A stretch of DNA of 64,000 nt, taken from NCBI GenBank assembly GCA_005804885.1, contig SYOX01000381.1, positions 2,934 to 66,933 on the forward strand, in the 5' to 3' direction. Under the pieces are notes generated by a model. That model had not been told where the DNA came from. It ran no database searches and worked only from the letters and a program-made list of their open reading frames with translations. The stretch comes from Pseudomonadota bacterium (GTDB lineage: Bacteria > Myxococcota_A > Bradymonadia > Bradymonadales > GCA-2716585). The position numbers and the translations under genes are program-made. Position 1 is the stretch's first letter. Every line of letters begins with the position of its first letter. Shown piece after piece: positions 657 through 45,450 of the stretch.

Positions 657-671
657 TGGCACGCCCCTTGC
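657..671 (+). promoter_or_regulatory. sigma54 (-24/-12) promoter for the giant repeat-protein gene
   Basis: TGGCAC-GCCCC-TTGC matches the consensus TGGCAC-N5-TTGC exactly. It is flanked by a near-perfect 26-bp palindrome (631-656) and a perfect 20-bp palindrome (706-725). Confidence 0.75.
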
Positions 672-750: not shown

Positions 751-3700
751 ATGCAAAGCCCACTTCACAGCAAGCGCGAAGCCTCCTTCGCAGCGCGCGC
801 CCTGCTCCCCACGCCTGACCGCGCCGTGCGCCCCCTGCTCACCCTCGGACTGGCCGCCCTGCTCTGGGCCGCGCTGGCCCCTCCGGCGCACGCCCAGGAC
901 CCGACCGACGCCCTCCGCCTCCAACCCCCTTCCCTCTCCAGCACCTCGGCCCGGACCAGCCACGGGGCGCTCTCCCCCGGCGCCCTCGCCGATCCCACCG
1001 GCGACCTCGACGGGATCGAGGGTGGCCCGCCCCTCGATCCAGCGATGGCCGACCCCGAAGGCGGGGGGTCGTCGGCCCAGCCCTCCACAAGGACGCGCAG
1101 GATCATCCGCAACGGCGCGTACATCCTCTATTTTTACGAACACGACCCCGTCGACGACGAGACCCTCCTGCACATCCTCGGGCTCTTCTGGTATCGCGGA
1201 AAGCCGGACTGGAAGCTCTTCATCGCCCTGCCCTTGGGCGCCTACTGGCGCTGGAACGACGACCCCAACCGCTGGGGGCTGATCTCCCCCCTGGCGTGGC
1301 ACGTCCAGGACGACGACTTCACCTACACCGGCGCGTGGCTCTATCATCGATATGAGAGCCGCCAGACGCGCTTCTCCACCCTCTTCCCGCTCTACTGGAA
1401 CCACCAGGATCTGGACCTCGACGAAGACCTCCACATCCTCGGCCCCCTCTTCTACAAGACGAGGCCCGAGGGCTGGAGCGCGGGGCTGGCGCCGATCTTC
1501 TGGATGGGCGGCGGGCCGGAGAGCACCTCATGGACCCTGCTGCCGCTGGTCCACTACGAGGACGACGCCGAGTCCACCCGCCTCTACTCCCCGGCCTTCC
1601 TCCACATCCACGACAAGGAGAGCGACAGCCTCTTCGGCGGCATCCCGGCGCTGATGACCTTCTGGAGCGGCGACGACTACAGCACCTTCGTGATGCAGTT
1701 CCCCTTGCTCTTCAAGTACATCGAGGACGACTTCAGGCTGACCCTGGCGGCGGTGCTGCTCCTCGGCCTTGAGGCGGACGACTGGCGCTTCGGCTCCGTG
1801 CTGCCCTTCTTCTTCGGCTACGAGGACGACGAAGACGACTTCCGGCTGCTCCTGCCGGTCCTCTACGCGCGGTGGTCGGACAAGCGGAGCGACGATCACT
1901 TCGGGATGCTCGGCCCGCTCTACACCTGGCGCGATGGCCAGGAGCACGGCGCCGGCCTGTGGCCGCTGATCAAGTTCGACCAGGACGACATCACCGGCGA
2001 CGCCACGACGATGATCCTGCCGATCTACTACGCCAGCGACGAGGGCGAGGTGCAGCACCGCTACTTCCTGCCCTTCCTCTACGGGAGCAGCTTCTTTGAC
2101 GAGGAGCACCACTGGACCACCCTCGGGCCGCTCTACACCATCGACGACGGCCAGGACCACTACCACGGCCTCGCGCCCTTCGTGCACGTCCACCAGAACG
2201 AGGAGCAGCAGGAGGAGCTGACCATCGTGGCGCCCCTGTACGGGGCCTACGACGACCCTCAGACGCACATCCGGCTGCTCGTCCCGCTGCTCTACTTCCG
2301 CCACGAAGATCTGGCCCTGGACACCCACCTGATCATCGCCGGCCCCTCCTGGTACAACCGGAGCGTCGACGACCTCTCCTACGGCGTCGCGCCCTTCTAC
2401 ATCCACTGGGAGAGCGAGGCGCTTGAGCGGGAGTTCACCCTCATCCCTGGGCTCTACTACAACAACGAGGGGCCGGGGTGGTCGACGACCTTCGTAGGGC
2501 CGGCCTTCCATAAGCAGGACGCCGATGGCTCGATGACCGGCGTGCTGCCCCTTGGCCTGTGGCACGAGGACGACCTGACGCAGACCAGGACGCTTGCGCT
2601 GGCGCCGGGGCTCTACTGGTCGGAGGGGCCGGAGCGCAAGCGGATCTTGATCGGGCCGGCCTGGAGCTTCAGAGACGGGGAGACGAAGAGCGACGGGCTC
2701 TTCCCCATCGTGGCGCGGCACGAGGAGGCCGACGGCAGCGGCTTCTTCTTCATGCCGGGCTTCCTCGATCTGAGGGTCACCGGGGAGGACGGGTGGGACT
2801 TCACCTGGCTGCTGTCGGGCTTCCGGTACAAGAGCCGGGACGGGGTCCGGACGACCATGGTGGCGCCGCTCTTCCTGGAGACGAGCGACGAGCGAACGGG
2901 CGACTACTGGGCGCTGGCGGCGCCGTGGATCTATTTAAGTGGAAATACGCGCACTTACGAGCGCTTCATCTTCGCGCCGCCCTTCTTCTACGACCGCGAT
3001 CTGGACGAGACGGACTGGCTGCTCTTCCCGCTGGCCTTCGGGCACGACGACCGGGAGCTGTCCTATTGGCTGGCTGGGCCGCTGGCCTTCAAGTACGAAG
3101 AGAAGGCGCCCGGCGGCGGCAAGCTGCTGCTCGGCCCGCTGCTCTTCGGGCAGTACACCCGGGGCCTGAACCCGGATCTGGGGACGCCGGAGGCCCTGCA
3201 GGGCGAGCCGGCGACGGACATGGGCTGGCTGGGGCCCTTTGTGTGGAGCGACACCCGCGAGCGGCGCTTCAGGATGCTCTTCCCCTTGCTCCTGGACTGG
3301 AAGGACTTCGAGCACGACGAGAGCTTCATGGCCTTCTTCCCGCTCTACTTCCAGTGGAAGCAGCAGGTGGAGGGGATCCAGCGCAGGCTGGACGCCTACG
3401 TGCCGCTCTATGTCCGCTACAGCGAGCTGATGCCCGACGGCACCGAGGAGTCCTTCCACGGCCTCGGGCCGCTCTTCGCCTACAGCGGCAGGAGCGGTTA
3501 CGGGCTTGGGGCCTTCCCCCTCTTCTGGCACGACCGGAGCACGGCGGAGGCCGGCGAATCGGGGCACGACATCGTCTTCCCGCTGGTGTGGCACTTCTTC
3601 AACGAGGGAGAGGGGACCCGCTCGGTGGTGGCCGGGCCGGTGTACAGCTTCAAGGAGCCGGGGGAGCAGAGCTACGGCGTGATCCCGCTCTGGTTCCACA

Positions 3701-5784
3701 AGACGGCCTGGTCGGAGGCCGGCGAGCAGGGCTATGACGCGGTCTTTCCCTTGTACTGGTATGGGTTTGGGAGGGACGAGGCGGGTCAGGAGGCGGCGAC
3801 GCTGCTGACGCCGGCGGGCTTCTATCGGCGCGAGGGGGAGAGCCGCTACGGGCTGGTGCTCAACTACTACTTCTCGCGGGAGGGGGAGGAGGCCACCGAC
3901 TTCCTCTTCCCCCTGGTCTACAGCCACCGCGATGAGACGGAGGACACGCTCTTCGTGGCGCCGCTCTACTATCACACGGAGACGCCCTCGTACTCGGCGC
4001 GGCTGCTCGCGCCGCTCTACTTTCACGCGGAGGACAGGATCGAGGATACGGAGGTGACGCTCCTCTTCCCCTACCTGGGGACGAAGACGCCCGAGTCCGA
4101 GATCGACATGGTCCTGCCGCTCTTCTTTCAGGAGCGGACCCGCGACGGGGATCTCTTCCGGCTCATCGCGCCGCTCTACCTCCAGTTGGAGGACGGGGTG
4201 ACGGGATCGCAGTTCGTGGCGGCCGGGCCGATCTGGTATTCCGGAGATGGGGCGGGGGGTTACGACACGGGGGCCTTCCCCTTGCTGTGGTGGGGGGAGA
4301 GCGCCGACGGGAAAGACGGCTACTTCGTGGGGGCGCCCTTGTTCTGGCGCTTCACCCTGAACGGCGGGCAGGACACGTGGACGGTGCTGACGCCCTTGTG
4401 GCACCACGAGGACGAGGAGGGCAGCGCGGCGGGCTTGTTCCCGCTGGCGTGGTGGGGCGAGGGGGCCGACGGGGTCGACGGCCACTCGGTGCTGGCGCCG
4501 GTGTGGTGGCGCTTCGTGTCGGGGGGCGGGCGAGATCGGTGGACGGTGTTGACGCCCTTGTGGCACCACGCGGACGAGGAGGGGGCGACGTCGGCGGGCT
4601 TGTTCCCGCTCTACTGGTGGAGGGAGGAGGCCAACGGGGTCGACGGCCACTCGGTCTTCTTCCCGGTGTGGTGGCGCTTCGTGTCGGACCAGGGGGCGGA
4701 TCAGTGGACCTCGCTGGGGCCGCTGTGGCTTCACGACCACCCGGAGGGCTGGTCGGCGGGGCTCTTCCCGCTGGCCTTCGCGCAGCGCGACGGCGAGGAC
4801 ACGAGGATGGGGGTTTTCCCCTTTTATTACAGCAATGTGGAGGACGTGCAGACGACGGTGGCCTTCCCGCTCTACTTCGGCAGGCGGTGGGACGATGGGG
4901 CGGGGAGCTTCGACACGATCCTGGGGCTCTACTGGGGCTGGGAGGACAAGGAGGAGGAGGTCAGCGGGCAGCTCCTGGGGCCGCTCTACCACTTTGAGGA
5001 CGGCGAAGCGAGCACGACGGGGCTCTTCCCGCTGGCGAACTGGAGCCACGATCCCGAGGAGGGGGACACGGGCTGGCTGCTGCCGGTGGCCTATTACGAT
5101 CGGTCGGCCGACGGCGCGGACATGCGGGTGGTGGCCGGGCCGGCCTTCTACGATCGGGACGAGGAGGGGACGGACTGGGGTCTGGCGCCGCTCTTCTGGA
5201 GCTTCGAGCGTGAGGCGGCCAGCGGCAGCATGCTCCTGCCGGCCTACTTCTACGAGGGGAGAGACGAGGGGCACACCTTCATCAGCCCGGTGGCGTACTC
5301 GAGGCGGGAGGGGGAGGTGTGGAACGCCTGGTCGCTGCTCTACGCCGGCGGGGGCGACGCCATGGGGAGCTGGCATACGGTGTTGCCGCTCTTCTACGGG
5401 CGGCGCAGCAACGACGGGTCGAGCTTTGACATCGCCCTGCCCTTCTACCTCAACTTCAAGCAGCCTGGGGGCCGGTCCGGCGGGACGGTGCTCTTCCCGC
5501 TCTACTGGAACTTCTACAACGAGGATTCGGGGAGCGACGCGACGGTGCTCTTCCCGCTCTACTGGCATTTCCTCAATGACAAGAGGGAGTTGACGTTGCT
5601 CCTGCCCTGGTTCCATTCCCAGCGCAAGGACATCGACCGGGTCACGCACGGGCTGGTGCCGCTCTACTATTACAGTCGGGATCCGAGCGGCTACACCTTC
5701 CAGCTCATGGGCGGTATCTTCGGGGTTGACCACACGAGGGCGGAGGACAAGACCGACTATCAGCTGCTGTGGATACCCTTCTGA
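751..5784 (+). CDS. Giant secreted/outer-membrane repeat protein (phi-P-L-[FYW] beta-hairpin repeats), function unknown
   Basis: 1677-aa ORF. The probable start is GTG at 826, giving a signal peptide (VRPLLTLGLAALLWAALAPPAHA|QD). About 1550 aa consist of 15-18-aa repeats such as LFPLYW, LGPLFY, LAPIFW separated by acidic loops. Ends YQLLWIPF. Confidence 0.85.
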   Translation: MQSPLHSKREASFAARALLPTPDRAVRPLLTLGLAALLWAALAPPAHAQDPTDALRLQPPSLSSTSARTSHGALSPGALADPTGDLDGIEGGPPLDPAMADPEGGGSSAQPSTRTRRIIRNGAYILYFYEHDPVDDETLLHILGLFWYRGKPDWKLFIALPLGAYWRWNDDPNRWGLISPLAWHVQDDDFTYTGAWLYHRYESRQTRFSTLFPLYWNHQDLDLDEDLHILGPLFYKTRPEGWSAGLAPIFWMGGGPESTSWTLLPLVHYEDDAESTRLYSPAFLHIHDKESDSLFGGIPALMTFWSGDDYSTFVMQFPLLFKYIEDDFRLTLAAVLLLGLEADDWRFGSVLPFFFGYEDDEDDFRLLLPVLYARWSDKRSDDHFGMLGPLYTWRDGQEHGAGLWPLIKFDQDDITGDATTMILPIYYASDEGEVQHRYFLPFLYGSSFFDEEHHWTTLGPLYTIDDGQDHYHGLAPFVHVHQNEEQQEELTIVAPLYGAYDDPQTHIRLLVPLLYFRHEDLALDTHLIIAGPSWYNRSVDDLSYGVAPFYIHWESEALEREFTLIPGLYYNNEGPGWSTTFVGPAFHKQDADGSMTGVLPLGLWHEDDLTQTRTLALAPGLYWSEGPERKRILIGPAWSFRDGETKSDGLFPIVARHEEADGSGFFFMPGFLDLRVTGEDGWDFTWLLSGFRYKSRDGVRTTMVAPLFLETSDERTGDYWALAAPWIYLSGNTRTYERFIFAPPFFYDRDLDETDWLLFPLAFGHDDRELSYWLAGPLAFKYEEKAPGGGKLLLGPLLFGQYTRGLNPDLGTPEALQGEPATDMGWLGPFVWSDTRERRFRMLFPLLLDWKDFEHDESFMAFFPLYFQWKQQVEGIQRRLDAYVPLYVRYSELMPDGTEESFHGLGPLFAYSGRSGYGLGAFPLFWHDRSTAEAGESGHDIVFPLVWHFFNEGEGTRSVVAGPVYSFKEPGEQSYGVIPLWFHKTAWSEAGEQGYDAVFPLYWYGFGRDEAGQEAATLLTPAGFYRREGESRYGLVLNYYFSREGEEATDFLFPLVYSHRDETEDTLFVAPLYYHTETPSYSARLLAPLYFHAEDRIEDTEVTLLFPYLGTKTPESEIDMVLPLFFQERTRDGDLFRLIAPLYLQLEDGVTGSQFVAAGPIWYSGDGAGGYDTGAFPLLWWGESADGKDGYFVGAPLFWRFTLNGGQDTWTVLTPLWHHEDEEGSAAGLFPLAWWGEGADGVDGHSVLAPVWWRFVSGGGRDRWTVLTPLWHHADEEGATSAGLFPLYWWREEANGVDGHSVFFPVWWRFVSDQGADQWTSLGPLWLHDHPEGWSAGLFPLAFAQRDGEDTRMGVFPFYYSNVEDVQTTVAFPLYFGRRWDDGAGSFDTILGLYWGWEDKEEEVSGQLLGPLYHFEDGEASTTGLFPLANWSHDPEEGDTGWLLPVAYYDRSADGADMRVVAGPAFYDRDEEGTDWGLAPLFWSFEREAASGSMLLPAYFYEGRDEGHTFISPVAYSRREGEVWNAWSLLYAGGGDAMGSWHTVLPLFYGRRSNDGSSFDIALPFYLNFKQPGGRSGGTVLFPLYWNFYNEDSGSDATVLFPLYWHFLNDKRELTLLLPWFHSQRKDIDRVTHGLVPLYYYSRDPSGYTFQLMGGIFGVDHTRAEDKTDYQLLWIPF
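4270..4776 (+). repeat. Three in-frame tandem copies of a ~54-55-codon unit inside the repeat protein
   Basis: G[AL]FPL.WW.E.A[DN]G.DG....[AF]P..WRF....G.D.WT.L.PLW.H..EEG occurs three times, with clear DNA-level similarity. Confidence 0.8.
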
Positions 5785-5803
5785 GGGTCGGCTTCGAGGG
5801 GGG

Positions 5804-5882
5804 GGGGATTCCTGGGCGGTGGCCCGGTCGTGGTGGAGAGGGCGGGGATTCTTGGGCGATGGCGCGGCCGTGGTAGAAAGGG
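5804..5882 (+). repeat. Tandem 40-bp-period direct repeat, adjoining a G10 tract (5798-5807), upstream of the TolB-like gene
   Basis: ggggattcctgggcggtggcccggtcgtggtggagaggg vs ggggattcttgggcgatggcgcggccgtggtagaaaggg (33/39 identical). The second copy contains TGG-TAGAAA, resembling an extended -10. Confidence 0.65.
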
Positions 5883-5909: not shown

Positions 5910-6830
5910 ATGGGCCTGAGCGAGAAGAAGTTTCAGCGGATGAACGTCCCCTCGGGCAAGCGGGTCACGGCCGGGCTGGGCGTGCACGCGCACCCGGCGC
6001 TGTCGCCGAAGGGGCGCTGGATGGCGTGGGCGGCCGAGGGCGGAGGGGACGTCCACATCTACGTCGGCGACAGGCAGGGGCGGCTCGGGCGGCAGATCAG
6101 CGGCGGCCACGGGGTCCACGCGCGAGCGGCCTGGTCCCCGGATGGCCGCACGATCGCCTACGGGCTGCGCAAGACCGAGCAGGGGCGCTGGCAGATCTGG
6201 CTTGGCGACAGGATCGACGCCGCGCTGACGCGGGTCCTGCTCAGCAGCACGCGCTTCAACTACCAGTTCCCGGCCTTCAGCCCGGAGGGCGGCAGCCTCG
6301 TCTTCTCCTCGACGCAGGGCTCGTCCGACGACACCTACAACCTCTGGCGCGTCGATCTGTCCACCGGCGAGAAGGAGCAGCTGACCGAGGCCGCCGGCCG
6401 CAATGACATGCTGCCGCGCTTTGATCCTTCGGGCCAGCGGCTGATCTTCAGCGCGGCGCCGGCCGGGGATCTGGCCGCGACGCACCTCTACAGCCTGGAT
6501 CTCGAGTCGCGGGGCGAGGAGAGGCTCACGGGCGGCAAGAAAGCCATGGAGGACGCGATCCTGGTCGACAGCCGCGTGGCCATCTGCACCCGGCGCGGCA
6601 AGAAGGGGCCCTCGCTCGTCGCGCTGGATCTGGAGCGCGGGGCGACGCTGATGCTGGTCGAGGACGCCCGCCACCCCACCGCGCGGGTGGACGCCGATGG
6701 GATCGTCGAGCTGGCCTGGACGGGCTCGGCGGGCGTGCCTGGGATCTACAGAGGGGAGCTGGCAGACTTCAAGGCCGAGCGGAGCGCGCGCCCCGTCGCG
6801 AGCGATCTGGAGAAGCAAGCGCGATCATGA
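5910..6830 (+). CDS. TolB-like / PD40 (WD40-like) beta-propeller protein
   Basis: Repeated HPALSPKG, AAWSPDG, PAFSPEG and PRFDPSG motifs. RBS GGAGGGAG. No obvious signal peptide. Confidence 0.8.
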   Translation: MGLSEKKFQRMNVPSGKRVTAGLGVHAHPALSPKGRWMAWAAEGGGDVHIYVGDRQGRLGRQISGGHGVHARAAWSPDGRTIAYGLRKTEQGRWQIWLGDRIDAALTRVLLSSTRFNYQFPAFSPEGGSLVFSSTQGSSDDTYNLWRVDLSTGEKEQLTEAAGRNDMLPRFDPSGQRLIFSAAPAGDLAATHLYSLDLESRGEERLTGGKKAMEDAILVDSRVAICTRRGKKGPSLVALDLERGATLMLVEDARHPTARVDADGIVELAWTGSAGVPGIYRGELADFKAERSARPVASDLEKQARS

Positions 6831-7249
6831 GAGCAGCTCAGGGAGATGGCCTCTGGGGGCCGGTCGCCGCCCTCTGGCAGAAGTCGGGGCGCGCGCTGAT
6901 GGTGCTGTCGATCGGCCACCAGCTTTTTGCCGCGATGGTGTGGGCGACGGGCCAACACCGCCTGCTCTACCTCGGCCAGCGCGCCCCGGAGGGCGTCGAG
7001 GGGCTCGATGAGGCGGCGATGCTGTGGTTCCTGCTCTCCGGGGTGCTCTTCTTCATGGTCGGTGCGGTGATGGACTGGGGGATCCGCGCGTCGGGTGAGC
7101 CGCCGCCGCCGTGGTTCTCGATCTTCGTCGTGGTGTTCAGCGCCGTCATGGTGATCCTGATGCCGCTGTCGGGCTTCTGGGCGGGCCTGGCGCTGGGGCT
7201 GGTCCTGCTGCGCGCGGCGCTCGGGCGAGCGCGCTCGCCGCGCAGTTGA
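6827..7249 (+). CDS. Small integral membrane protein
   Basis: ATGA overlap with the upstream stop; 3-4 hydrophobic segments. Confidence 0.65.
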   Translation: MRAAQGDGLWGPVAALWQKSGRALMVLSIGHQLFAAMVWATGQHRLLYLGQRAPEGVEGLDEAAMLWFLLSGVLFFMVGAVMDWGIRASGEPPPPWFSIFVVVFSAVMVILMPLSGFWAGLALGLVLLRAALGRARSPRS

Positions 7250-7316
7250 GGATGGGTCGGAATGCGCCCGTGCTGCGGCAGGTTCTGAGGCCGTGGATCG
7301 ACCCGCAGGAGGAGCC

Positions 7317-7718
7317 ATGAGCCAGAATCTGCCGCCCGCCCCCTACCGGCCTCAGCCCCTGGCCCCCCACGAAGAGAACAACTGGGCGATGGCGAGCCAC
7401 CTGAGCACGCTGGCCGGCCACCTCGTGCCCTTCGGCCACATCCTTGGGCCGCTGGCGATCTGGCTGATGAAGAAGGACCAGTCGGCCAAGGTCGAGCTTC
7501 ACGCCCGAGAGGCGATCAACTTCCAGATCACGATGACGCTCGGCATGGTCGTGGGCCTGCTGCTCTCCGTCGTGCTGATCGGCATCCCCATCCTGATCGG
7601 GCTCTACATCTTTGATCTGGTCGTGACCATCCAGGCCACGATGAAGGCCAAGGACGGGCTCCACTTCGACTACCCCATGACGATCCGCTTCATCCCCTCT
7701 CCCCACGGCTCGCCCTGA
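7317..7718 (+). CDS. DUF4870 domain membrane protein
   Basis: WAMASHLS...GPLAIWLMKKDQS..V..HAREAINFQIT...A.DG..F.YPMTIRF is the typical pattern. RBS AGGAGG before ATG at 7317. Confidence 0.85.
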   Translation: MSQNLPPAPYRPQPLAPHEENNWAMASHLSTLAGHLVPFGHILGPLAIWLMKKDQSAKVELHAREAINFQITMTLGMVVGLLLSVVLIGIPILIGLYIFDLVVTIQATMKAKDGLHFDYPMTIRFIPSPHGSP

Positions 7719-9568: not shown

Positions 9569-9830
9569 TGGACCTCCTCGGGTGCGGGGCGTGCGAGCGC
9601 GCCGGAGACCCTTCTTTGGGGATGGCGGCGAGCGCAAGCAAGCGCAAGACAAGCATAAGATATGCTGGTCCGCTCTTTGCACTCTTCAAGGCAAGGAGCT
9701 TTTTATCCAAGGGTTGAAGCGGCAATGGCTACTCATCTTCAACCTCGACACCATCATGGTGACAACATTCGTTGTCAAAAACATGGCAAAGGGTCGCAAA
9801 AATTGTCACCGGATCCAGGAGCAGGAAGTC

Positions 9831-12800
9831 ATGAGGACACAACAGGTCATCAATCCCCGCGAGACTAGAAACTCACTTGGGGGAGAGTTCGCCGAGTGGA
9901 TGCGGCGATCTCCCGCGTTGGGGTTGGGTTTGGCCACGATCTTGATGGCCGCAGGGCCGGCCCAGGCGGCCCCGCCGGTGGCGCAGACCCAGAACGTGTC
10001 GACGAACGAGAACCAGACGGTCAACATCACGTTGACGGGCTCGGACGCGGATGGGGACTCGCTGCGCTTCGGCATCACCGACCAGCCGGACCGCGGCTCG
10101 CTGTCGTTCAACTTCATCTCGGGGTGCACCAAGCTCCAGGCCTTCAACTACAACCCCAACGCTGACAACGACGACGGCAGCTGCCGCTACACGTCGTGCC
10201 GCCAGATCAAGCTGGCAGATCCCAACGCCACCACGGGCAACTACACCATCGATCCGGACGGCACTGGCTCCTTCGGCGCGCTGACGGTCCACTGCGACAT
10301 GACGACGGACGGCGGTGGCTACACCATGCTCAACGTCGACAGCGGCATCAACACCTTCCGCAGCACGGACCACAACTCGTGCAGGGCGATGGGCCTCAAC
10401 ATGGTGGTGCCGAGGACGAAGGAGCACTGGCGCTCGCTGCTCAACCGCTACGGCACCTCGTACTTCAACACCATCCCCGGCATCTCCAAGCCCTCCAGCG
10501 GCGGCAACTACACCGGCTTCGCCATGCGCTCCGGCTCGGTGCCCGACTGGCGGGCCCTCGACGGCGGCTCGTGGTTCATTCGCGACTCGCCCTACAGCGA
10601 GCCCAACGGCGACTACGAGGCCAACTGCTGGCTGTTGATGTACAACTTCGACGTCAACAACATCCAGTTCAACGACGGCACCTGCTCCTACTCCACGTCG
10701 CGCTACATCTGCTCCACCAACGACAAGGCCGGAGTGGAGAACCTCGGCGGAGTCGCCTCCTGCGCGACGATCAAGCTCAATGACCCCAACGCCGCCAGCG
10801 GCAACTACACCCTCACCACCTCGACCGGCGCCCGGGTCACGGCCTTCTGCGACATGACGACGGACGGCGGCGGCTACACGATGGTGCCTGTGGACAGCGG
10901 CATCCGCACCTCCCGCAGCACGGACAACGACTCGTGCAAGGCGATGGGGCTCAACATGGTGGTGCCGAGGACGAAGGAGCACTGGCGCTCGCTGCTCAAC
11001 CGCTTCGGCACCTCGTACTTCAACACCATCCCCGGCATCTCCAAGCCCGGCGGCGGCGGCAACTACACCGGCTTCGCCATGCGCTCCGGCTCGGTGCCCG
11101 ACTGGCGGGCCCTCGACGGCGGCTCGTGGTTCATGCGCGACTCGCCCTACAGCGAGCCCAACGGCGACTACGACGGCAACTGCTGGCTGTTGATGTACAA
11201 CTTCGACGTCAACAACATCCAGTTCAACGACGGCGGCTGCTCCTACTCCACCACCCGCTACATCTGCTCCACCAACGACAAGGACGGGCCGCTGGTCCGG
11301 GACACGGGGCTGCGCACCTGCCAGGAGATCCTCAGGGCCAACCCCAGCGCCCCCTCCGGCAACTACACCCTCCGCCCGAAGCAGGGCGTCACCGTGTCGG
11401 CCTACTGCGACATGAGCACCGACGGCGGCGGCTACACGGCGGTGGCGATCGACGACGGCATCCGCACCTTCCGCAGCACCGACAACGACTCCTGCAAGGC
11501 CCTCGGTCTGGACATGGTCATCCCCCGCACCAAGGCCCACTTCAACAGCCTGCTGAGCCGCTTCGGCACGTCCTACTTCGGCACCGTCCCGGGCATCTCC
11601 AAGCCCACCAACGGCGGGAACTACACCAACTTCACCATGAACTCCAAGGCGGGTATCATCGACTGGCGCGCCACCGACAACGGCCAATGGTGGCTGCGCG
11701 ACACCCCCTACAGCGAGCCCAACGGCGACTACACCGCCAACTGCTGGCTGTCGATGTACCACTTTGACATCAACGATCTGCGCTACAACGACGGCAACTG
11801 CTCCTACTCCACCACCCGCTACATCTGCTCCTCCAACGACAAGAAGGGCTTTGAGCAGATCAGCGCACAGCGCCGAACCTGCGCGACGATCAAGCAGGGT
11901 GACCCCAACGCCGTCAGCGGCAACTACACCATCACCACCTCGACCGGCGCCCAGGTCACGGCCTTCTGCGACATGACGACGGACGGCGGCGGCTACACGA
12001 TGGTGCCTGTGGACAGCGGCATCAACACCTTCCGCAGCACGGACAACGACTCGTGCAAGGCGATGGGTCTCAACATGGTGGTGCCTCGGACCAAGGAGCA
12101 CTGGCGCTCGATGCTCAACCGCTTCGGCCAGTCCTACTTCAACACCATCCCCGGCATCTCCAAGCCCGGCGGCGGCGGCAACTACACCAGCTTCGCCATG
12201 CGCTCCGGCTCGGTGCCCGACTGGCGGGCCCTCGACGGCGGCTCGTGGTTCATGCGCGACACCCCCTACAGCGAGCCCAACGGCGACTACGACGGCAACT
12301 GCTGGCTGCTGCAGTACGACTGGAACGTGGACAACATCCGCTTCAACGACGGCGGCTGCTCCTACTCCACGTCGCGCTACATCTGCTCCACCAACGACAA
12401 GGACGGGCCCCTGCGTCCCCCGGTCAGCTTCCGCTCCTGCGCCGAGATCAAGCGCGCCACCCCCAACGCCGCCACCGGCAACTACACCATCGTGACCGAG
12501 ACCGGCCGCGCGGTGACGGCCTACTGCGACATGACGACGGACGGCGGCGGCTACACGATGGTGCCGGTGGACAGCGGCATTCGCACCTCCCGCGTCAGCG
12601 ACATGGACTCCTGCCGTGAGATGGGCCTCCAGATGATCGTCCCGCGCACCAGGGCGCACTGGGTGTCGATGCTGGGCCGCTTCGGCCAGTCCTACTTCAA
12701 CACCATCCCCGGCATCTCCAAGCCCTTCGACGGCGGCAACTACACCGGCTTCGCCATGAAGTCCGGCTCGGTGCCCGACTGGCGGGCCATCGACGGCGGC

Positions 12801-15800
12801 TCGTGGTTCATGCGCAACTCGCCCTACAGCGAGCCCAACGGCGACTACAGCCAGAACTGCTGGCTGCTTCAGTACCACTGGGACGTGGACAACATCCAGT
12901 ACAACGACGGCGGCTGCTCCTACTCCACCGCCCGGTACCTCTGCTCCACCAACGACAAGGACGGCGACATCACGCTGCCGAAGTCGTGCATGGCCATCAA
13001 GCTGCTCAACCCCAACGCCGCCAGCGGCAACTACGACATCAACCCCGGCCGCGGCCGCCTCACCGTCCACTGCGACATGACCACCGACGGCGGTGGTTAC
13101 ACCATGCTCAACATCGACAGCGGCATCACCACCTCCCGCATCACCGACCGCGACACCTGCAAGGACCTCGGCATGCAGATGGTGGTGCCGAGGACGAAGG
13201 AGCACTGGCGCTCGCTGCTGAGCCGCTACGGCACCTCCTACTTCAACACCATCCCCGCCATCGCCAAGCCCCACAGCGGCGGCAACTACACCGGCTTCGC
13301 GATGAAGTTCGGCTCGGTGCCTGACTGGCAGGCCATCGACCTCGGCTCGTGGTTCATGCGCGACTCGCCCTTCGGCGAGCCCAACGGTGATTACACCGAG
13401 AACTGCTGGCTGCTTCAGTACAACTGGGATGTGAACAACATCCAGTTCAACGACGCCAACTGCGCCTACTCCACGTCGCGCTACATCTGCTCCACCAACG
13501 ACAAGGATCCGGACCCCAACTTCCAGCGCTTCCAGAACCAGACCCGCCCGCCGGCGAGGACCTCGATCTCCGGCACCTACACGCCGGCCAATGGCTACTT
13601 TGGCACCGACTTCTTCGACTTCCGCGTCACCGATCCCGGCGGTGAGACCTCCACCGCCCGCGTCAACATCACGGTCATCTCCGTCAACGTGGCCCCCGTG
13701 GCCCAGAACCAGTCCGTCTCCGTCGCCGAGGACGGCACCCTCAACATCACCCTCGTCGCCACCGATGGCGACGGCGACAGCCTCACCTACACCCTCCTGA
13801 CCAACCCCGGCCAGGGCACCCTGACGGGCACGGCGCCCAACCTCACCTACCGCCCGGCGGCCAACTTCAACGGCTCGGATTCGCTTACGTTCCGGGTCAA
13901 CGACGGCACGGTCAACTCCAACACCGCCACCGTCTCCATCACCGTCACCCCCGTCAACGACACCCCCGTCGCCAACGCCCAGAGCGTGACCACGAACGAG
14001 GACACCCCCGTCACCATCACGCTGACCGGCTCGGACATCGACGGCAACACGCTGACCTACTCGCTCGTGTCCAACCCCACCCGTGGCGCGATCTCCTGCA
14101 CGGGCGCGGTCTGCACCTACACGCCGACGGCCAACCTCAACGGCGCGGATTCGTTCATCTTCCGGGTCAACGACGGCACCGTCTTCTCCGCCAACGCCAC
14201 CGTCTCCGTCACCGTCAACGCCGTCAACGACACCCCCGTCGCCAACAACGGCACGGCGGTCGTCAACGAGGACAGCTCCGTCGGCATCGTCCTGACCGGC
14301 TCGGACGTCGACGGCAACACGCTGACCTACACGGTCGTGACCAACCCGACGCGCGGCACCCTGAGCGGCACCGTGCCCAACCTGACCTACACGCCGACGG
14401 CCAACCTCAACGGCGCGGATTCGTTCACCTTCCGGGTCAACGACGGCACGGTCAACTCCGCCAACGCCACCGTCTCCATCACCATCAACCCGGTCAACGA
14501 CGTCCCCGTCGCCAACGTCCAGAGCGTGACCACGAACGAGGACACCTCCCGCAGCATCACGCTGACCGGCTCGGACATCGACGGCAACACGCTGACCTAC
14601 TCGCTCGTGTCCAACCCGTCTCAAGGCGCCCTGTCCTGCACGGGCCCCGCCTGCACCTACACCCCGAATCTCAACTACAACGGCGCGGATTCGTTCATCT
14701 TCCGGGTCCACGACGGCACCGTCTTCTCCGCCAACGCCACCGTCTCCATCACCGTCACCTCCGTCAATGACGCCCCCGTGGCCAACGCCGCCAACGTCTC
14801 GACCAACGAGGACACCTCCGTGGCGATCGTCCTGACCGCCACCGACGCCGACGGCAACGCCCTGACCTTCACCGTGACCACGCAACCTCTGCGCGGCACC
14901 CTGACGGGCACGGCGCCCAACCTCGTCTACCGACCCAACACCAACTTCAACGGCGCCGACTCGCTCAGCTTCAAGGTCAACGACGGCACCATCGACTCGG
15001 CCATCGTGAACGTCTCGATCACCGTCAACCCCGTCAACGACGCCCCGGTCGCCGACACCCGTGCCCTCCAGACCAACGAGGATACGCCGCTGACCCTGAC
15101 CCTGACCGGCTCGGACGTCGACACTGGCACCACGCTGACCTTCGCCACCCTGACCACCCCCAGCAACGGCACCCTGACCTGCACGGGCGCCGCCTGCACC
15201 TACCGCCCCGCGGCCAACTTCAACGGCGACGACTCCTTCCTCTTCAGGGTCAACGACGGCGCGCTGAACTCGGCGCCCGCCGCCATCACCATCACCGTCA
15301 ACGCCGTCAACGACCAGCCCGTCGCGGCCACCCAGAACGTCACGACCAACGAGGACACGGCTCGCAACATCGTCCTGACCGGCACGGACGTCGACGGCAA
15401 CCCTCTGACCTTCGAGGTCATGAGCAACCCGACGCGCGGCGCCCTCTCGGGCACGGCGCCCAACCTGACCTACACGCCGACGGCCAACGCCAACGGCGCG
15501 GATTCGTTCGCCTTCCGGGTCAACGACGGCACGGTCAACTCCACCATCGCCGTGGTCAACATCACCATCACGCCCGTCAACGACGCCCCGGTCGCCCAGC
15601 CTCGCAACCTGTCCACCGACGAGAACATCGCCGTCAGCCTCACGCTGACCGCCACGGACGTCGACGGCGACGCGCTGACCTTCTCGGTCACCCGCGATCC
15701 CGCCAACGGGCGGCTCTCGGGCGTCGCGCCCAACCTGACCTACACGCCCAACAACGGCTTCCTGGGCGTCGACACCTTCAACTTCCGCGCCTTTGACGGG

Positions 15801-17528
15801 GGGCTCGACAACGAGGCGACGGTCACCGTCACCGTCCGCAACCCCGGTCTGGAGCCGCCGGCCCTCACCATCGACACCGCGAGCCTCTGGTTCGGCGCCG
15901 GGCAGACCCTGCAGGCCCGCATGACCGATGGCCGCTGCCAGACCCCCCCCACCGTCGCCGTCACCCCCACGAGCATTACGCTGGCCGTGACCAACCTCCA
16001 GAACGGCGGCTGGCAGCTCACCTCGCCCGTCCTGCCCCAGGGCACCTACAACGCCTCGATCACCGTCACCAGCCGGTGCAGTGACAGGACCACGGTCGCC
16101 ACGCGGGTCTTCGGCGTCGACACCACGCGCCCGGACATCGTCTACGGCGAGCTCCCCCAGAACGGCGTCAACCCCAACGACATCACCACCTGGCCCATCA
16201 AGTCCCTGCTTGAGGAGCTTCCCATCAACAGCCTGCTGCGCGACCCCCTCAGCGGCGTCGCCTCGGCCTCGACCACGCTCTTCGCCCTGGATCGCAACAA
16301 CCAGTCCTTTGCGCTCCACAGCGGCAACTTCACCACGCGCACCGGCGCGCCCCCGACGGGCCTGACGGTCACGACCGCCTCGCTCTGCTCCAACGTCCAG
16401 CACTGCAACAACGGCCGCCTGCGCCTTGAGCCCCTCGAAGGCGACCGCTTCATGCTCAGGATCCAGCTCACCGACGTGGCCGGCAACGTCCGCGTGTCCG
16501 ACTTCCTCTTCCGCGTTGCGCGCTTGCGGCCCAGCATCGTGGCCTGGAGGGAGGCGCTCGTCGCCCTGACGAGCAACAACACCCAGGCCAACAACGCGCG
16601 CCTGGCCGCCATCGCCAAGCTCGACATCGCGCTGGAGGGCTTCGACAACAACTACATCGGCAACATGGTCCTCACCCTGGAGGACGCCGAGGCGCTCAGC
16701 CGCGTCGCGCGCGCCTTCGACACCCGAGTCGACACCCGCCCGCAGGCCCTGCTGGTGGCCAACCTCACCCACCGCTTCTTCGTCGAGGAGCTGAAGATCG
16801 TCGAGAACGAGTTTGGCCTGCTCGGACCCGTGCAGACCGCAGACACCCACCTCGACCTGGCGCGCGGCCACATCGACATCGAGGCCAGCGGCGACGCGCT
16901 GCTCTCGTGCGCCAACGCCTACTTCTACATGGAGATGCCGCGCATGCCGGAGATCGTCGAGAACTTCGGGACCACGCGCTCGCTCATCAACCAGATCATC
17001 GGCGAGATGGACACCTACATCACCCACAACCCCGTCCTGGCCGGCCGCACCCAGGTCGCCGTGGCCCGCACCGAGTTGAGCATCGTGCGCGACTTCATCG
17101 TCCGGGTTGTCACCAACGGCGACACCTCCCTGAGCGACCTTGAGCACCTGCGCCTCCTGCTCGGGCTGGCCAATGTCGCCCAGCAGATCAAGGTCGTCGA
17201 GGAGGCCGGCGTCTGGGTGCGCAACTGGCAGTGGGGCCTGACGCAGATCGTCCACCTCTACGCCGACCGCGGTCTGCGCAACACGCGCTCCCGCCTTGGC
17301 CTCTTCAGCCCCATGCTGACCGAGGGTGAGAATCAGCTGGCCCGCGCCGTGGTGCACCGCGGTCGCCAGGAGGCGGACGACTACATGACGCTGCTGATCA
17401 ACTCGCGTTGCGTCATGATCGGGCTCTACAATCTGGTCTTCGAGCCCAACGAGGCCATTCCCACGGCCTGCTGCGCTGACATGCTCCGCTACAGAGGCAT
17501 CGACAGCCGCGTTCCCATCTGCCAGTAG
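9831..17528 (+). CDS. Giant secreted adhesin: 6 fibrinogen-like/C-type-lectin modules + 9 bacterial Ig-like (tandem-95/cadherin-like) repeats + novel C-terminal module
   Basis: ATG at 9831 follows AGGAG (the ORF track starts at 9582). Signal peptide ...LATILMAAGPAQA|A. Six C.xIK...G.Y...CDM[TS]TDGGGYT...EPNGDY...C...[FY]ND..C...CS units, then N.xPVA...T.ED...L.G.D.DG..L...P..G.L.G..PNL.Y.P..N.NG.DSF.F.VNDG repeats. Confidence 0.9.
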   Translation: MRTQQVINPRETRNSLGGEFAEWMRRSPALGLGLATILMAAGPAQAAPPVAQTQNVSTNENQTVNITLTGSDADGDSLRFGITDQPDRGSLSFNFISGCTKLQAFNYNPNADNDDGSCRYTSCRQIKLADPNATTGNYTIDPDGTGSFGALTVHCDMTTDGGGYTMLNVDSGINTFRSTDHNSCRAMGLNMVVPRTKEHWRSLLNRYGTSYFNTIPGISKPSSGGNYTGFAMRSGSVPDWRALDGGSWFIRDSPYSEPNGDYEANCWLLMYNFDVNNIQFNDGTCSYSTSRYICSTNDKAGVENLGGVASCATIKLNDPNAASGNYTLTTSTGARVTAFCDMTTDGGGYTMVPVDSGIRTSRSTDNDSCKAMGLNMVVPRTKEHWRSLLNRFGTSYFNTIPGISKPGGGGNYTGFAMRSGSVPDWRALDGGSWFMRDSPYSEPNGDYDGNCWLLMYNFDVNNIQFNDGGCSYSTTRYICSTNDKDGPLVRDTGLRTCQEILRANPSAPSGNYTLRPKQGVTVSAYCDMSTDGGGYTAVAIDDGIRTFRSTDNDSCKALGLDMVIPRTKAHFNSLLSRFGTSYFGTVPGISKPTNGGNYTNFTMNSKAGIIDWRATDNGQWWLRDTPYSEPNGDYTANCWLSMYHFDINDLRYNDGNCSYSTTRYICSSNDKKGFEQISAQRRTCATIKQGDPNAVSGNYTITTSTGAQVTAFCDMTTDGGGYTMVPVDSGINTFRSTDNDSCKAMGLNMVVPRTKEHWRSMLNRFGQSYFNTIPGISKPGGGGNYTSFAMRSGSVPDWRALDGGSWFMRDTPYSEPNGDYDGNCWLLQYDWNVDNIRFNDGGCSYSTSRYICSTNDKDGPLRPPVSFRSCAEIKRATPNAATGNYTIVTETGRAVTAYCDMTTDGGGYTMVPVDSGIRTSRVSDMDSCREMGLQMIVPRTRAHWVSMLGRFGQSYFNTIPGISKPFDGGNYTGFAMKSGSVPDWRAIDGGSWFMRNSPYSEPNGDYSQNCWLLQYHWDVDNIQYNDGGCSYSTARYLCSTNDKDGDITLPKSCMAIKLLNPNAASGNYDINPGRGRLTVHCDMTTDGGGYTMLNIDSGITTSRITDRDTCKDLGMQMVVPRTKEHWRSLLSRYGTSYFNTIPAIAKPHSGGNYTGFAMKFGSVPDWQAIDLGSWFMRDSPFGEPNGDYTENCWLLQYNWDVNNIQFNDANCAYSTSRYICSTNDKDPDPNFQRFQNQTRPPARTSISGTYTPANGYFGTDFFDFRVTDPGGETSTARVNITVISVNVAPVAQNQSVSVAEDGTLNITLVATDGDGDSLTYTLLTNPGQGTLTGTAPNLTYRPAANFNGSDSLTFRVNDGTVNSNTATVSITVTPVNDTPVANAQSVTTNEDTPVTITLTGSDIDGNTLTYSLVSNPTRGAISCTGAVCTYTPTANLNGADSFIFRVNDGTVFSANATVSVTVNAVNDTPVANNGTAVVNEDSSVGIVLTGSDVDGNTLTYTVVTNPTRGTLSGTVPNLTYTPTANLNGADSFTFRVNDGTVNSANATVSITINPVNDVPVANVQSVTTNEDTSRSITLTGSDIDGNTLTYSLVSNPSQGALSCTGPACTYTPNLNYNGADSFIFRVHDGTVFSANATVSITVTSVNDAPVANAANVSTNEDTSVAIVLTATDADGNALTFTVTTQPLRGTLTGTAPNLVYRPNTNFNGADSLSFKVNDGTIDSAIVNVSITVNPVNDAPVADTRALQTNEDTPLTLTLTGSDVDTGTTLTFATLTTPSNGTLTCTGAACTYRPAANFNGDDSFLFRVNDGALNSAPAAITITVNAVNDQPVAATQNVTTNEDTARNIVLTGTDVDGNPLTFEVMSNPTRGALSGTAPNLTYTPTANANGADSFAFRVNDGTVNSTIAVVNITITPVNDAPVAQPRNLSTDENIAVSLTLTATDVDGDALTFSVTRDPANGRLSGVAPNLTYTPNNGFLGVDTFNFRAFDGGLDNEATVTVTVRNPGLEPPALTIDTASLWFGAGQTLQARMTDGRCQTPPTVAVTPTSITLAVTNLQNGGWQLTSPVLPQGTYNASITVTSRCSDRTTVATRVFGVDTTRPDIVYGELPQNGVNPNDITTWPIKSLLEELPINSLLRDPLSGVASASTTLFALDRNNQSFALHSGNFTTRTGAPPTGLTVTTASLCSNVQHCNNGRLRLEPLEGDRFMLRIQLTDVAGNVRVSDFLFRVARLRPSIVAWREALVALTSNNTQANNARLAAIAKLDIALEGFDNNYIGNMVLTLEDAEALSRVARAFDTRVDTRPQALLVANLTHRFFVEELKIVENEFGLLGPVQTADTHLDLARGHIDIEASGDALLSCANAYFYMEMPRMPEIVENFGTTRSLINQIIGEMDTYITHNPVLAGRTQVAVARTELSIVRDFIVRVVTNGDTSLSDLEHLRLLLGLANVAQQIKVVEEAGVWVRNWQWGLTQIVHLYADRGLRNTRSRLGLFSPMLTEGENQLARAVVHRGRQEADDYMTLLINSRCVMIGLYNLVFEPNEAIPTACCADMLRYRGIDSRVPICQ

Positions 17529-17626
17529 CTCCGGAGCGAGAGCCCTTGCGCGGACTCAGCAAACCGGCCATCATGTCTCCAACAGGCAACATACAGCCGC
17601 AGGCGACGTCATCTCCTTATCAAGAG

Positions 17627-17656
17627 TTGACGCCGCCTGCGCGCCGTACCTACTTT
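17627..17656 (+). promoter_or_regulatory. Possible sigma70 promoter for the second adhesin
   Basis: TTGACG-N18-TACTTT upstream of RBS AGGAG and ATG at 17684. Confidence 0.4.
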
Positions 17657-17683
17657 CCACCCTCCTATTCATCAGGAGCTCAT

Positions 17684-20600
17684 ATGATGCGCTCGCTAAC
17701 CTCTCTCTGTGGCCTCGTCGCCCTGCTCGCCCTTCTGGCTTGCGAAGCACCCTCGGCCACGGATGAACCCGGCCTGCGGCGCGTCAACCAGCCCGGACAG
17801 CCCAACAACCCGCCCACCGTCAACTTCCAGGAGATCTCCACGGCGCTCAACACCCCCGTGGCCTTCAGGCTGACCGGCGCAGATCCCGACGGCGACGCCT
17901 TGATCTTCACGGTGCTCCGGCAGCCCTCCAACGGGCGAATCACGGGCACCTCCCCGAACCTGACCTACACCCCCAACAACGGCTTCAACGGCATCGACTC
18001 GATCGACTTCATCGCCAGCGACGGCCTGCTCAACTCCAGCGCCTCCACGATCAACTTCCTCGTCGGCAACCTCCCCCCGACCGGCTTCAACCAGCGGCTC
18101 GTGGTCGACGTCAACACCCCCCGCGCCTTCACCCTTGAGGGCTCCGACCCCAACGGATCGGCGCTGACCTTCGCCGTCGTCACCCCTCCGCGCAACGGGC
18201 GACTCACGGGCACGGCCCCGAACCTGACCTACACCCCCAACAACAACTACACCGGCCCGGACACCTTCACCTTCACCGTCAACGACGGCGCCCTGACCTC
18301 CCCAGCGGCCATTGTCTCCATCGGCGTCGGCGGGGTCTTCAACCAGGCCCCGCTGGCCCTCTTCCAGTCCGTCTCCACCGAGCCTGGCACCCCGGCGGCC
18401 TTCACCCTCCAGGGCATCGATCCCGACGGCGACACGCTGACCTTCACGGTGGTCCGGCAGCCCTCCAACGGGCGAATCACGGGCACCCCCCCGAACCTGA
18501 CCTACACCCCCAACAACGGCTTCATCGGCCAGGACTCGATCGACTTCACCGCCAGCGACGGGCTCCTCAGCTCGGAGGTGTCCTCGGTCATCTTCATCGT
18601 CGGCGATCTCCCCCCCCAGGCCTTTGACTTGGATCTGTCCACGCGCGCCAACACCCCGCTCACCGTCACGCTGGGCGGCCTCGACCCCAACGGCTCTGCG
18701 CTGACCTTCCAAGTCCTCACCCAGCCAGAGAACGGCGACCTCTCGGGCGTCGCCCCCAACCTGACCTACACCCCCGACAACGGCTTCAACGGCCTGGACA
18801 CCTTCACCTACACCGTCAACGACGGCCGGTCGACCTCGCCCCCAGCCAAGGTCAACATTACCATCGGCGAGACGGGCTTCGCGCCGACCGCCAACCCCCA
18901 GGCCCTCACCATCGACGTCGGCGCCTCGACCCCGATCACCCTGACCGGCTCCGATCCCGAGGAGCAGGCGCTGACCTTCGAAGTCCTCACGCAGCCCACC
19001 GGCGGACAGCTCACGGGCACGGCCCCGAACCTGACCTACACCCCCAACCAGGGCTTCGAGGGCCTTGATGAGTTCACCTTCCGGGTCTTTGACGGCGTGT
19101 TGCGCTCTCCGAGCGCCACCGTCACGATCACGGTCGGCACCCTGAACCTCACGCCGGTCGCCTTCCCCCAGGCCCTGACGACGGCGCCCGGCACCCCGCT
19201 GGCCTTCAGGCTCGGCGGCACCGACCCCGAGGGCGCACCCCTGACCTTCGCCGTGGTCGCCGCGCCCCAGCGCGGCCAGCTCTCGGGCACGGCCCCGAAC
19301 CTGACCTACACCCCCAACCAGGGCTTCGAGGGCGAGGATCGCCTCATCTTCACCGTCAACGACGGCCAGCTCACCTCAGCACGCGCCACCATCACCTTCG
19401 CCGTCGGGATCTTCAACACGCCCCCCGTCGCGCTGCCCCAGAGCATCTCGACCGAGGTGAACACGCCCGTCGCGATCACCCTGGGCGCCTCCGACGAGGA
19501 CGGCGACGCGCTGACCTTCGAAGTCTTCTCCAACCCCACCGGCGGCATCCTCTCGGGCGTGGCCCCGAACCTGACCTACACCCCCAACAACGGCTTCGTC
19601 GGCGCGGACATCTTCACCTTCAGAGTGAGCGACGGTGAGGATTTTTCTCCGTTCGTATCCGTACTTGTGCGAGTGGGCGTCGATAACCTGCTCCCCGAGG
19701 CGCTCTCCCAGGCGCTGATCACCAACAGGAACACCCCGGTCGCCATCACGCTGTCGGGCAGCGACCCCGAGGGCTCACCTCTGACCTTCGCCGTGGTCGG
19801 CGCGCCCCAGAGCGGCCAGCTTGCGGGCACGGCCCCAAACCTGACCTACACCCCCAACCAGGGCTTCGAGGGCAACGACGTCTTCACCTTCCGGGTCAAC
19901 GACGGCCTGGACAACTCCGCCCCCGCCTCCGTCCTGATCACGGTGGGAAGGCTCAACCAGGCGCCCTTCGCCAACGATCAAGAGCTGGCCACCCCCCAGG
20001 ACACCCCCCTGGCCTTGACCCTCGACGGGGCCGACCCCGACGGCGGCCCGATCACGATCCAGATCATCGATCGGCCCACGCGGGGCGCGCTCTCGGGCAC
20101 GGCCCCGAACCTGGTCTACACCCCCAACAACGGCTTCAACGGCATCGACTCCTTCACCTGGCAGGCCTCCGACGGCCAGGCGCTCTCGGGGATCGCCACG
20201 GTCGAGATCACCGTCGGCGTGCCCAACGAGCTCCCCGTGGCCTTGTCCCGCGACGTCGTCACCAACCAGGGCACCCCCGTCTCGATCGTGCTGACGGGCC
20301 AGGACCCCGAGGGCGCGCTGCTGACCTTCATCGTGACCCGCTCTCCGGACAACGGTCGGCTGGCGGGCGCTGCCCCGAACCTGGTCTACACCCCCAACGG
20401 CGGCTTCACCGGCGTCGACACCTTTGACTTTGTCGTTGATGACGGCGAGGACGAGTCCCCCACGGCCACCATCTTCATCTTCATCGGCGTCAACCCGCCT
20501 CCCCAGGCCCAGCTCCAGCAGCTCAGGCTCAACGAGGACGCCTCCATTGCCATCACCCTGCGCGCCACGGACCCCGACGGCGGGCCGCTCTCCTTCCAGA

Positions 20601-43481: not shown

Positions 43482-43522
43482 GGCCTCGCGGCCTGCGCCC
43501 AAGCCCGAAGAGGTCGCGATCG

Positions 43523-45319
<1,797 letters not shown>

Positions 45320-45434: not shown

Positions 45435-45450
45435 TGGCACGGCCGTTGCT
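45435..45450 (+). promoter_or_regulatory. sigma54 (-24/-12) promoter for the downstream lipoprotein pair
   Basis: TGGCAC-GGCCG-TTGCT is an exact consensus match, 116 nt after the activator's stop codon. Confidence 0.8.

Follow-up and report, generated by a model that had tools for sequence, protein, structure and literature searches.

The giant repeat gene and its surroundings

The 64,000-nucleotide window analysed here, the whole stretch taken from contig SYOX01000381.1, contains near its beginning a gene for a giant repeat protein, hereafter called P0001. The gene runs from an ATG at position 751 to position 5784 on the forward strand (751..5784, +) as a single open frame, and it specifies 1677 amino acids (aa) plus a stop codon. 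A hydropathy scan and the translation together place a Sec-type signal peptide at residues 1-48 (751..894, +), with a hydrophobic core at residues 25-46 and then AHA followed by QD, between which the cleavage site was read by eye from the translation. Apart from this core, the scan of the whole protein found no other hydrophobic 19-mer above the threshold. On this basis, we are fairly confident in reading the N-terminus as a Sec signal peptide and the protein as exported. Since P0001 contains no cysteine, it is not a lipoprotein.

The translation of residues 49-115 (895..1095, +) gives a low-complexity linker of Pro, Ala, Gly, Ser and Asp, whose counterpart in a short relative, the N-terminal 57 residues of its AlphaFold2 model, has predicted local distance difference test (pLDDT) scores below 50. 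The protein is rich in aromatic residues, with 72 W (4.3%), 88 Y (5.2%) and 116 F (6.9%), which together account for 16.5% of P0001. It also contains 115 prolines, and the mature chain carries 245 D+E against 111 K+R. The C-terminus reads ...YQLLWIPF and belongs to a module (5650..5781, +) ending ...LLWIPF, which comparison with orthologues and other relatives showed to be conserved in the family. Neither the Pfam scan nor the hydropathy scan revealed a recognisable signal for leaving the envelope in P0001. These features agree with the initial annotation of this DNA, which had described a protein of about 1.7 kaa with a signal peptide and a short linker, rich in W/Y/F, free of Cys and ending in Phe.

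From residue 116 to residue 1677 (1096..5781, +), the chain consists of an array of about 88-89 putative beta-hairpin units with a period of 17.55 aa, as delineated by a regular expression, Fourier analysis, a repeat hidden Markov model (HMM) and, for residues 478-1677, AlphaFold2. Each unit follows the order strand, tight x-P-L turn, aromatic strand and acidic loop. The expression [LFAGVIWTSM]P[LFVIAWGY][FYWLVAIH] matched P0001 75 times, with 72 of these matches inside the array, and the spacings between motifs were mostly 16-21 aa, bigger gaps being close to multiples of this length. The Fourier transform of the proline positions over residues 116-1677 peaked at 17.55 aa with a power of 1743, whereas 500 shuffles reached at most 1122. 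The initial annotation had counted about 95-100 'phi-P-L-aromatic' hairpins by eye; the repeat itself is borne out by the 72 motifs and the Fourier peak, but a 17.55-aa period over the array corresponds to about 89 periods, so the earlier count was about 10% too high. The repeat HMM gave 66 positive-score matches in P0001 against 0-1 in each of 20 shuffles, a comparison that is circular by construction, since the model was built from the 72 units of P0001 itself.

When the units were aligned on their prolines, positions -3 to +3 were hydrophobic, 62% of the residues at +2 and +3 were aromatic, and D/E made up 36-44% at positions 6-9 on either side of the proline. The aromatic residues of the array form regular ladders. 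In the set of nine orthologues, comprising P0001 and its eight close orthologues, conservation peaked at the proline (0.87), with values of 0.53-0.65 for its neighbours and 0.43-0.50 for the loops. The charge of the relatives varies from strongly acidic to strongly basic: K+R make up 18.1% and D+E 6.2% of P0011, and no net charge of either sign marks the orthologue P0004. The acidic edge is thus not a family trait, and conservation is confined to the proline, the hydrophobic residues beside it and the C-terminal module. The earlier description of one hydrophobic edge of Pro turns and one acidic edge fits P0001, with its hydrophobic tips and D/E-rich loops, but does not extend to the family.

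Within the array, three tandem copies of a three-hairpin unit of 54-55 aa occupy residues 1176-1339 (4276..4767, +), as found by Tandem Repeats Finder (4377-4687, period 165 nt, 1.9 copies, 85% matches) and by unit alignment. The three units, at 4276-4437, 4438-4602 and 4603-4767, share a mean column identity of 84% in the DNA alignment. In the nine-orthologue alignment, this block is present in three copies in P0001, in two copies in P0002-P0004 and in one copy in P0005 and P0007. Therefore, the length of the array changes in three-hairpin steps, in line with the recent triplication and the growth by three-hairpin units that had been proposed for this locus.

Upstream of the gene, a sigma-54-type -24/-12 element (TGGCAC-N5-TTGC, TGGCACgccccTTGC) lies at 657..671 (+), 80 nt before the ATG. 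The 64-kb window holds two such exact consensus matches, whereas shuffled sequence would be expected to give 0.06. An orthologue of P0001 in locus L010 has a one-mismatch sigma-54 site upstream, and no site within one mismatch was found upstream of the orthologue in locus L002. No sigma-70-like site was found upstream of the P0001 gene. We regard the element as a good consensus match and a candidate sigma-54 promoter, not as proof of dependence; to that extent, the promoter assigned to the gene in the initial annotation stands as a prediction. The only other exact consensus in the window (45435-45449) follows a gene for an FHA-GAF-sigma-54 enhancer-binding protein (43469-45319), which lies 38 kb from the P0001 gene, and precedes a gene with a CarboxypepD_reg domain (45999-47627).

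Downstream, most of the 125-nt gap before the next gene is taken up by a 40-bp tandem repeat (5796-5882, 2.2 copies, 82% matches). No terminator-like hairpin was found in this gap, and no intrinsic terminator was found 3' of the P0001 gene. The gap is followed by genes for a 306-aa PD40 propeller (5910-6830, E 5e-21) and for two small membrane proteins, DUF6463 (6827-7249, E 1.7e-17) and DUF4870 (7293-7718, E 3e-36). The TolB-like propeller and the two membrane proteins announced earlier are thus present, but the likeness to TolB is narrower than its name implies. TolB is periplasmic; the PD40 protein has no N-terminal hydrophobic segment in the hydropathy scan and, having no signal peptide, is therefore TolB-like in repeat type only. 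In L002, a PD40 gene (45% identical) and a DUF4870 gene also follow the orthologue. In L010, the genes 3' of the orthologue are unrelated (a multihaem cytochrome and a molybdopterin oxidoreductase). Since the PD40/DUF4870 linkage is found in only two of the three orthologous loci, these genes were not counted as partners, and the PD40 and membrane-protein genes were dropped as members of a common system with P0001.

Farther downstream, two adjoining giant genes (9582-17528 and 17546-24367), which encode 2648 and 2273 aa, contain Big_9 and bacterial cadherin-like domains in large number. Near its N-terminus, the 2648-aa product also has short stretches that match two profiles, fibrinogen C-terminal and fibrillar-collagen C-terminal (E about 1e-19 to 1e-20). 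The sequencing runs that carry this DNA are freshwater metagenome DNA runs, with small shares in estuary runs, and no RNA run is listed among them.

Family membership and distribution

P0001 matched no Pfam family at E values up to 10, except for a chance match to SPP1_portal, and the PDB sequence search returned no match with either P0001 alone or the nine-orthologue profile. The sole NCBIfam match was NF047486 (LA_1737_Cterm), at 33.2 bits (E 4.5e-8) under a curated cut-off of 60 bits, which leaves P0001 outside that family by its own membership rule and places the homology at the level of the repeat. The LA_1737_Cterm model covers only 158 positions of a repeat region. Among 12 relatives scanned against NF047486, P0023 (76.1 bits) and P0010 (73.6 bits) scored above the cut-off; therefore, the LA_1737 proteins of Leptospira share the Pro/aromatic hairpin repeats of P0001. 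In the window's own genome, NF047486 gave no match, and the controls were silent as well. ESM Atlas returned only unnamed clusters, with a Spirochaetota cluster among the nearest, and had no structure for them, and our literature search found no paper on the repeat family or on LA_1737. The earlier statement that the protein could not be assigned to a characterised family is thus in agreement with the Pfam, NCBIfam and PDB sequence searches.

A word-indexed search retrieved 196 relatives. The eight close orthologues are 38-51% identical to P0001 and 1237-1765 aa long, one of them being partial; seven end in (L/M)WIP(F/L), and P0002 ends earlier, in ...GLVPFY. A second large group of about 1200-1350 aa, 22-27% identical, comes from Myxococcota/Polyangia metagenome bins, and many of its members have a Cys-rich knot at the N-terminus and a basic tail behind the FIPF motif. 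The G-Y-x-R...LWIPF module closes both the short relatives described below and those of about 1250 aa, at times with a tail after it. An exhaustive search of 1.84 billion representatives gave 502 clusters (50% identity) at E <= 1e-3, including 97 at E <= 1e-30. In their source databases, all relatives are named 'hypothetical protein' except P0073, an 'EB domain-containing protein', and none of 36 diverse members had a Pfam domain above threshold, so that the family consists of repeat alone. No fused homologue of 2936-5000 aa was found, which is weak evidence.

The P0001 gene was the single match to the family profile in the genome from which the window comes (9.86 Mb in 428 contigs, 83.6% complete). 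A sample of 201 genomes of the same phylum contained 23 with a match at E <= 1e-10, including this one. By taxonomic family, matches were found in 15/15 genomes of one family, in 2/2 and 2/5 of two others, and in 0/19 of f2, which belongs to the window's own order. The distribution of the family is patchy. Since no member was found in the 19 sampled genomes of f2 while some other lineages of the phylum always have one, the giant gene may have been acquired or retained unusually in this lineage.

The family also contains a short subfamily. Its representatives lie immediately 3' of the gene for histidyl-tRNA synthetase, hisS, at L012 (7805-9517, -), L013 (8330-9910, +; a complete protein of 527 aa), L014 (7435-9303, -), L015 (8377-9930, -) and L016 (7295-9400, +), directly downstream in 5/5 loci and often overlapping the hisS stop codon. 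These proteins have 517-702 aa, 15-21 motifs, a signal peptide and the same C-terminal module as P0001. The subfamily is 54-64% identical across Polyangia (620 matches) and is present in 15/15 sampled genomes of one Myxococcota family. Together, this constancy and the linkage to hisS suggest an overlooked housekeeping role in the envelope for the short proteins. P0338, a database entry of 983 aa, has been called as a fusion with HisS. In addition, the hairpin array of the short relative in L016 is preceded by a fused peptidyl-prolyl isomerase domain of the FKBP type (E 1.8e-34). Given the one invariant proline per hairpin, this fusion is suggestive, and it would be consistent with a periplasmic location.

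Predicted fold and readings of the hydrophobic edge

For structure prediction, we submitted to AlphaFold2 residues 478-1677 of P0001, with an 80-sequence alignment, and the complete 527-aa relative of L013, with a 25-sequence alignment. The P0001 model had a mean pLDDT of 77.7 and a predicted template modelling score (pTM) of 0.38, with 907 of 1200 residues at a pLDDT of at least 70, and the short model had a pLDDT of 86.0 and a pTM of 0.54, with 357 residues at 90 or above. Both models are all-beta, with turns mostly of 2-4 residues. The large model contains 121 strands, of which 106 are 5-6 residues long and the longest has 8 residues; in the short model, 51 of 54 strands have 5-6 residues. 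Among the motif prolines in the modelled part of P0001, 50/56 are located in turns of 2-4 residues, none in strands, and 6 in low-confidence gaps. One of these gaps is the middle copy of the triplication, where the alignment is empty. With the motif prolines in tight turns, one edge of the predicted sheet is formed by the x-P-L-aromatic tips and the other by the acidic loops. As a predicted fold, this matches the long beta-meander of strand, Pro turn, aromatic strand and acidic loop that had been outlined from the sequence.

The models were then compared with solved structures by VIA-align, an exhaustive structural search with 50 listed matches, in which a Z score of 6-7.5 is the tool's background range for models without a clear match. 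For the short model, single-layer sheets ranked first among the listed matches: the CPAP G-box (4bxp_A, Z 11.6, 162/170 residues, root-mean-square deviation (rmsd) 8.5), the SAS-4 TCP domain (4by2_A, Z 11.1), a radial-spoke MORN protein (7jr9_E, Z 10.1), TbMORN1 (6t4r, Z 10.0), OspA (6kk9, Z 9.8) and junctophilin-2 (7rxe, Z 9.0). The large model gave the same order, with the G-box at Z 11.0 and MORN1 at Z 8.9. Porins and TonB-dependent/Omp85 barrels aligned at Z 6-7.5 over about 100-180 residues, which is the background range. Foldseek against the PDB gave hundreds of matches for both models, with template modelling (TM) scores of 0.05-0.14 and rmsd values of 25-86 A, and the matches included WD40 arrays, LRP2, ApoB100, teneurin, TcB-TcC and Rhs. 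Such similarity is local only, which fits a very extended object. Judged from the models, the local strand pattern is common, and the predicted global shape is without a counterpart among solved structures.

From the anatomy of the protein and its family, which can be read directly, and from the predicted fold, we infer the following location and function. P0001 would be an exported cell-envelope scaffold, a long thin beta-hairpin ribbon that acts through its greasy edge, a reading that we favour with slightly better than even confidence. After the Sec signal peptide and the disordered linker, the whole chain would fold into one long thin antiparallel beta-meander of about 88 hairpins of 17-18 residues each, with strands of 5-6 residues, akin to the sheets of MORN arrays and the CPAP G-box. 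With some 176 strands spaced by the usual 4.8 A, the ribbon would be about 85 nm long, if continuous, and its width would be about 2 nm. The conserved and presumably functional surface would be an unbroken line of L/F-P-L-aromatic tips along one edge, while the opposite edge would consist of variable polar loops, acidic in P0001. As a scaffold, the ribbon would bury its greasy edge in a partner, most likely the envelope-membrane interface or a second ribbon; docking at the membrane interface and self-association seem about equally likely. Duplication and loss of three-hairpin units would tune the length of the array. We are fairly confident that P0001 is an exported, non-lipidated, Cys-free protein made of one enormous two-stranded hairpin array, and not a transmembrane barrel, and equally so that the only conserved surface of the family is the Pro/aromatic turn edge.

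Several points weigh against the scaffold ribbon. The pTM values of both models are low (0.38 and 0.54), the short model rests on a 25-sequence alignment, and AlphaFold2 has been reported to be confident but unrealistic on repeat sequences (cited portion of PMC11795689). For repeat proteins, Z scores of 8-11 may reflect a shared arrangement only, not kinship. Moreover, the half of the single-layer sheet next to the tips is hydrophobic on both of its faces, and such a sheet would be unstable by itself in water, which makes the picture incomplete. The greasy edge must therefore be buried. A lipid interface, another ribbon, or a glycan or some other ligand could cover it, or the chain could fold back upon itself.

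The rival that survives best is a monotopic membrane-dipping ribbon, the central idea of the initial annotation, which we regard as possible though not likely. In this case, one leaflet of the outer or inner membrane would take up the tips to a depth of about 1 nm, the charged edge would remain in water, and the membrane would be coated or stiffened. The mean Wimley-White interfacial values at positions -3 to +3, proline excepted, are favourable (-0.25 to -0.80 kcal/mol), and such insertion would also suit the 62% aromatic content at +2 and +3, an edge that is continuous over about 88 hairpins, and a protein that is exported with no recognisable envelope-exit signal. However, TbMORN1, whose architecture is the nearest known, showed no binding to either membranes or vesicles according to the cited portion of PMC7725318. 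This rival overlaps the scaffold explanation, in which a membrane is one of the two likely partners of the edge. We also considered a monotopic beta 'keel', a sheet standing on edge over tens of nm with only its Pro/aromatic tips in one leaflet, which appears unlikely. If true, the outer membrane of Myxococcota, Bacteroidota and Leptospira could be stiffened, shaped or partitioned by such a keel, whose length would be set by the number of hairpins, and the family would represent a novel mode of membrane engagement by proteins.

It is quite unlikely that the ribbon is dedicated to glycans, with its exposed Trp/Tyr/Phe ladder binding exopolysaccharide or peptidoglycan. Aromatic beta-hairpin cell-wall or glucan-binding repeats do bind polysaccharide, and the 16.5% of aromatic residues in P0001, arranged in regular ladders, would suit such a role. 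The two giant Big_9/cadherin-type surface proteins, encoded 4 kb downstream, suggest a surface or matrix neighbourhood. However, P0001 had no Pfam match to CW_binding or carbohydrate-binding families at E values up to 10, and no such repeats were present among the 50 structural matches listed.

Two further alternatives are far less probable. The first is a bridge-like conduit that would carry lipid or other hydrophobic cargo across the periplasm in the manner of AsmA/TamB/Lpt. P0001 is exported, long and predicted to be all-beta with a continuous hydrophobic stripe, and the 54-strand short relative would, from its model, be about 26 nm long, near the periplasmic width. This is nevertheless very unlikely: there was no Pfam match to AsmA, TamB, DUF490 or Lpt, no such chain appeared among the 50 structural matches listed, barrel components aside, although absence from that list does not exclude a family, the model shows hairpins with strands of 5-6 residues instead of long bent groove strands, and the length of the giant would be about three times the width of the periplasm. 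The lipid-transfer groove entertained in the initial annotation is thus unsupported by any search. The second is that the ribbon is a modelling artefact and that the protein really folds as a stacked beta-solenoid or an amyloid-like rod, each coil of which holds one repeat. The 17.5-aa period does fit known solenoid coil lengths. AlphaFold2 is also said to mis-handle repeats in the cited portion of PMC11795689, but the reported bias runs towards solenoids, yet a meander was predicted here. The repeats are moreover degenerate natural ones with real alignments, and two independent targets gave the same architecture, so that we consider an artefact highly improbable.

The weakest rival, a giant outer-membrane beta-barrel or pore inserted by the beta-barrel assembly machinery with the terminal Phe as beta-signal, is extremely unlikely: although P0001 ends in Phe and aligns in part, over about 130 residues, with porins and TonB-type barrels (Z 6-7.5), these scores are at background, its predicted strands of 5-6 residues, with a maximum of 8, are shorter than those that span the membrane in barrels (roughly 9 residues or more), its hydrophobic residues cluster at the tips and do not alternate, and in many relatives the WIPF-like motif is followed by a basic tail of 30 aa and is therefore not C-terminal. 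For these reasons, we do not read P0001 as a transmembrane barrel, and the giant pore or ring suggested in the initial annotation is not supported.

Single-layer beta-sheets are rare and usually short, and here a whole family would build them at the 25-85 nm scale. If the scaffold ribbon is correct, it could introduce an architectural principle new to bacterial envelopes and give protein design a natural scaffold, and the identity of the ligand of the edge would give a function to hundreds of 'hypothetical' giant genes.

Comparison with known systems

Very long hairpin or amphipathic beta-sheet arrays are known from the YD/Rhs and teneurin shells and from the beta-belt of ApoB100, which were recovered by Foldseek at E values of 1e-5 to 1e-9. 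However, P0001 has no RHS_repeat Pfam match, and teneurin, TcB-TcC and Rhs gave TM scores of only 0.07-0.10 with rmsd values of about 50 A.

The top structural match was the G-box (TCP10) of CPAP/SAS-4, at Z 11.0-11.6 with 162-164 of 170 residues aligned. The CPAP G-box consists of one elongated beta-sheet and can form supramolecular assemblies, according to the cited portion of PMC3824074. Unlike P0001, it belongs to a eukaryotic centriole protein and has about 20 strands; the superposition has an rmsd of 8.5-12.3 A, and the two have no sequence relation.

MORN arrays, such as those of TbMORN1 (6t4r), junctophilin-2 (7rxe), radial-spoke and central-pair proteins, consist of tandem hairpins that form an elongated single-layer antiparallel sheet, like the model of P0001. 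At the level of models, MORN proteins matched at Z 8.0-10.1 over 95-170 residues. MORN1 acts as a protein-protein and oligomerisation module, as stated in the cited portion of PMC7725318. P0001 differs from these proteins in that it has no sequence similarity to them (no MORN or MORN_2 Pfam match at E values up to 10) and is predicted to be exported, whereas MORN proteins are cytoplasmic. The MORN repeat is about 23 aa long; that of P0001 has 17.5 aa and a Pro turn in place of the G-rich MORN motif, and the roughly 88 repeats of P0001 far exceed the array sizes known for MORN proteins.

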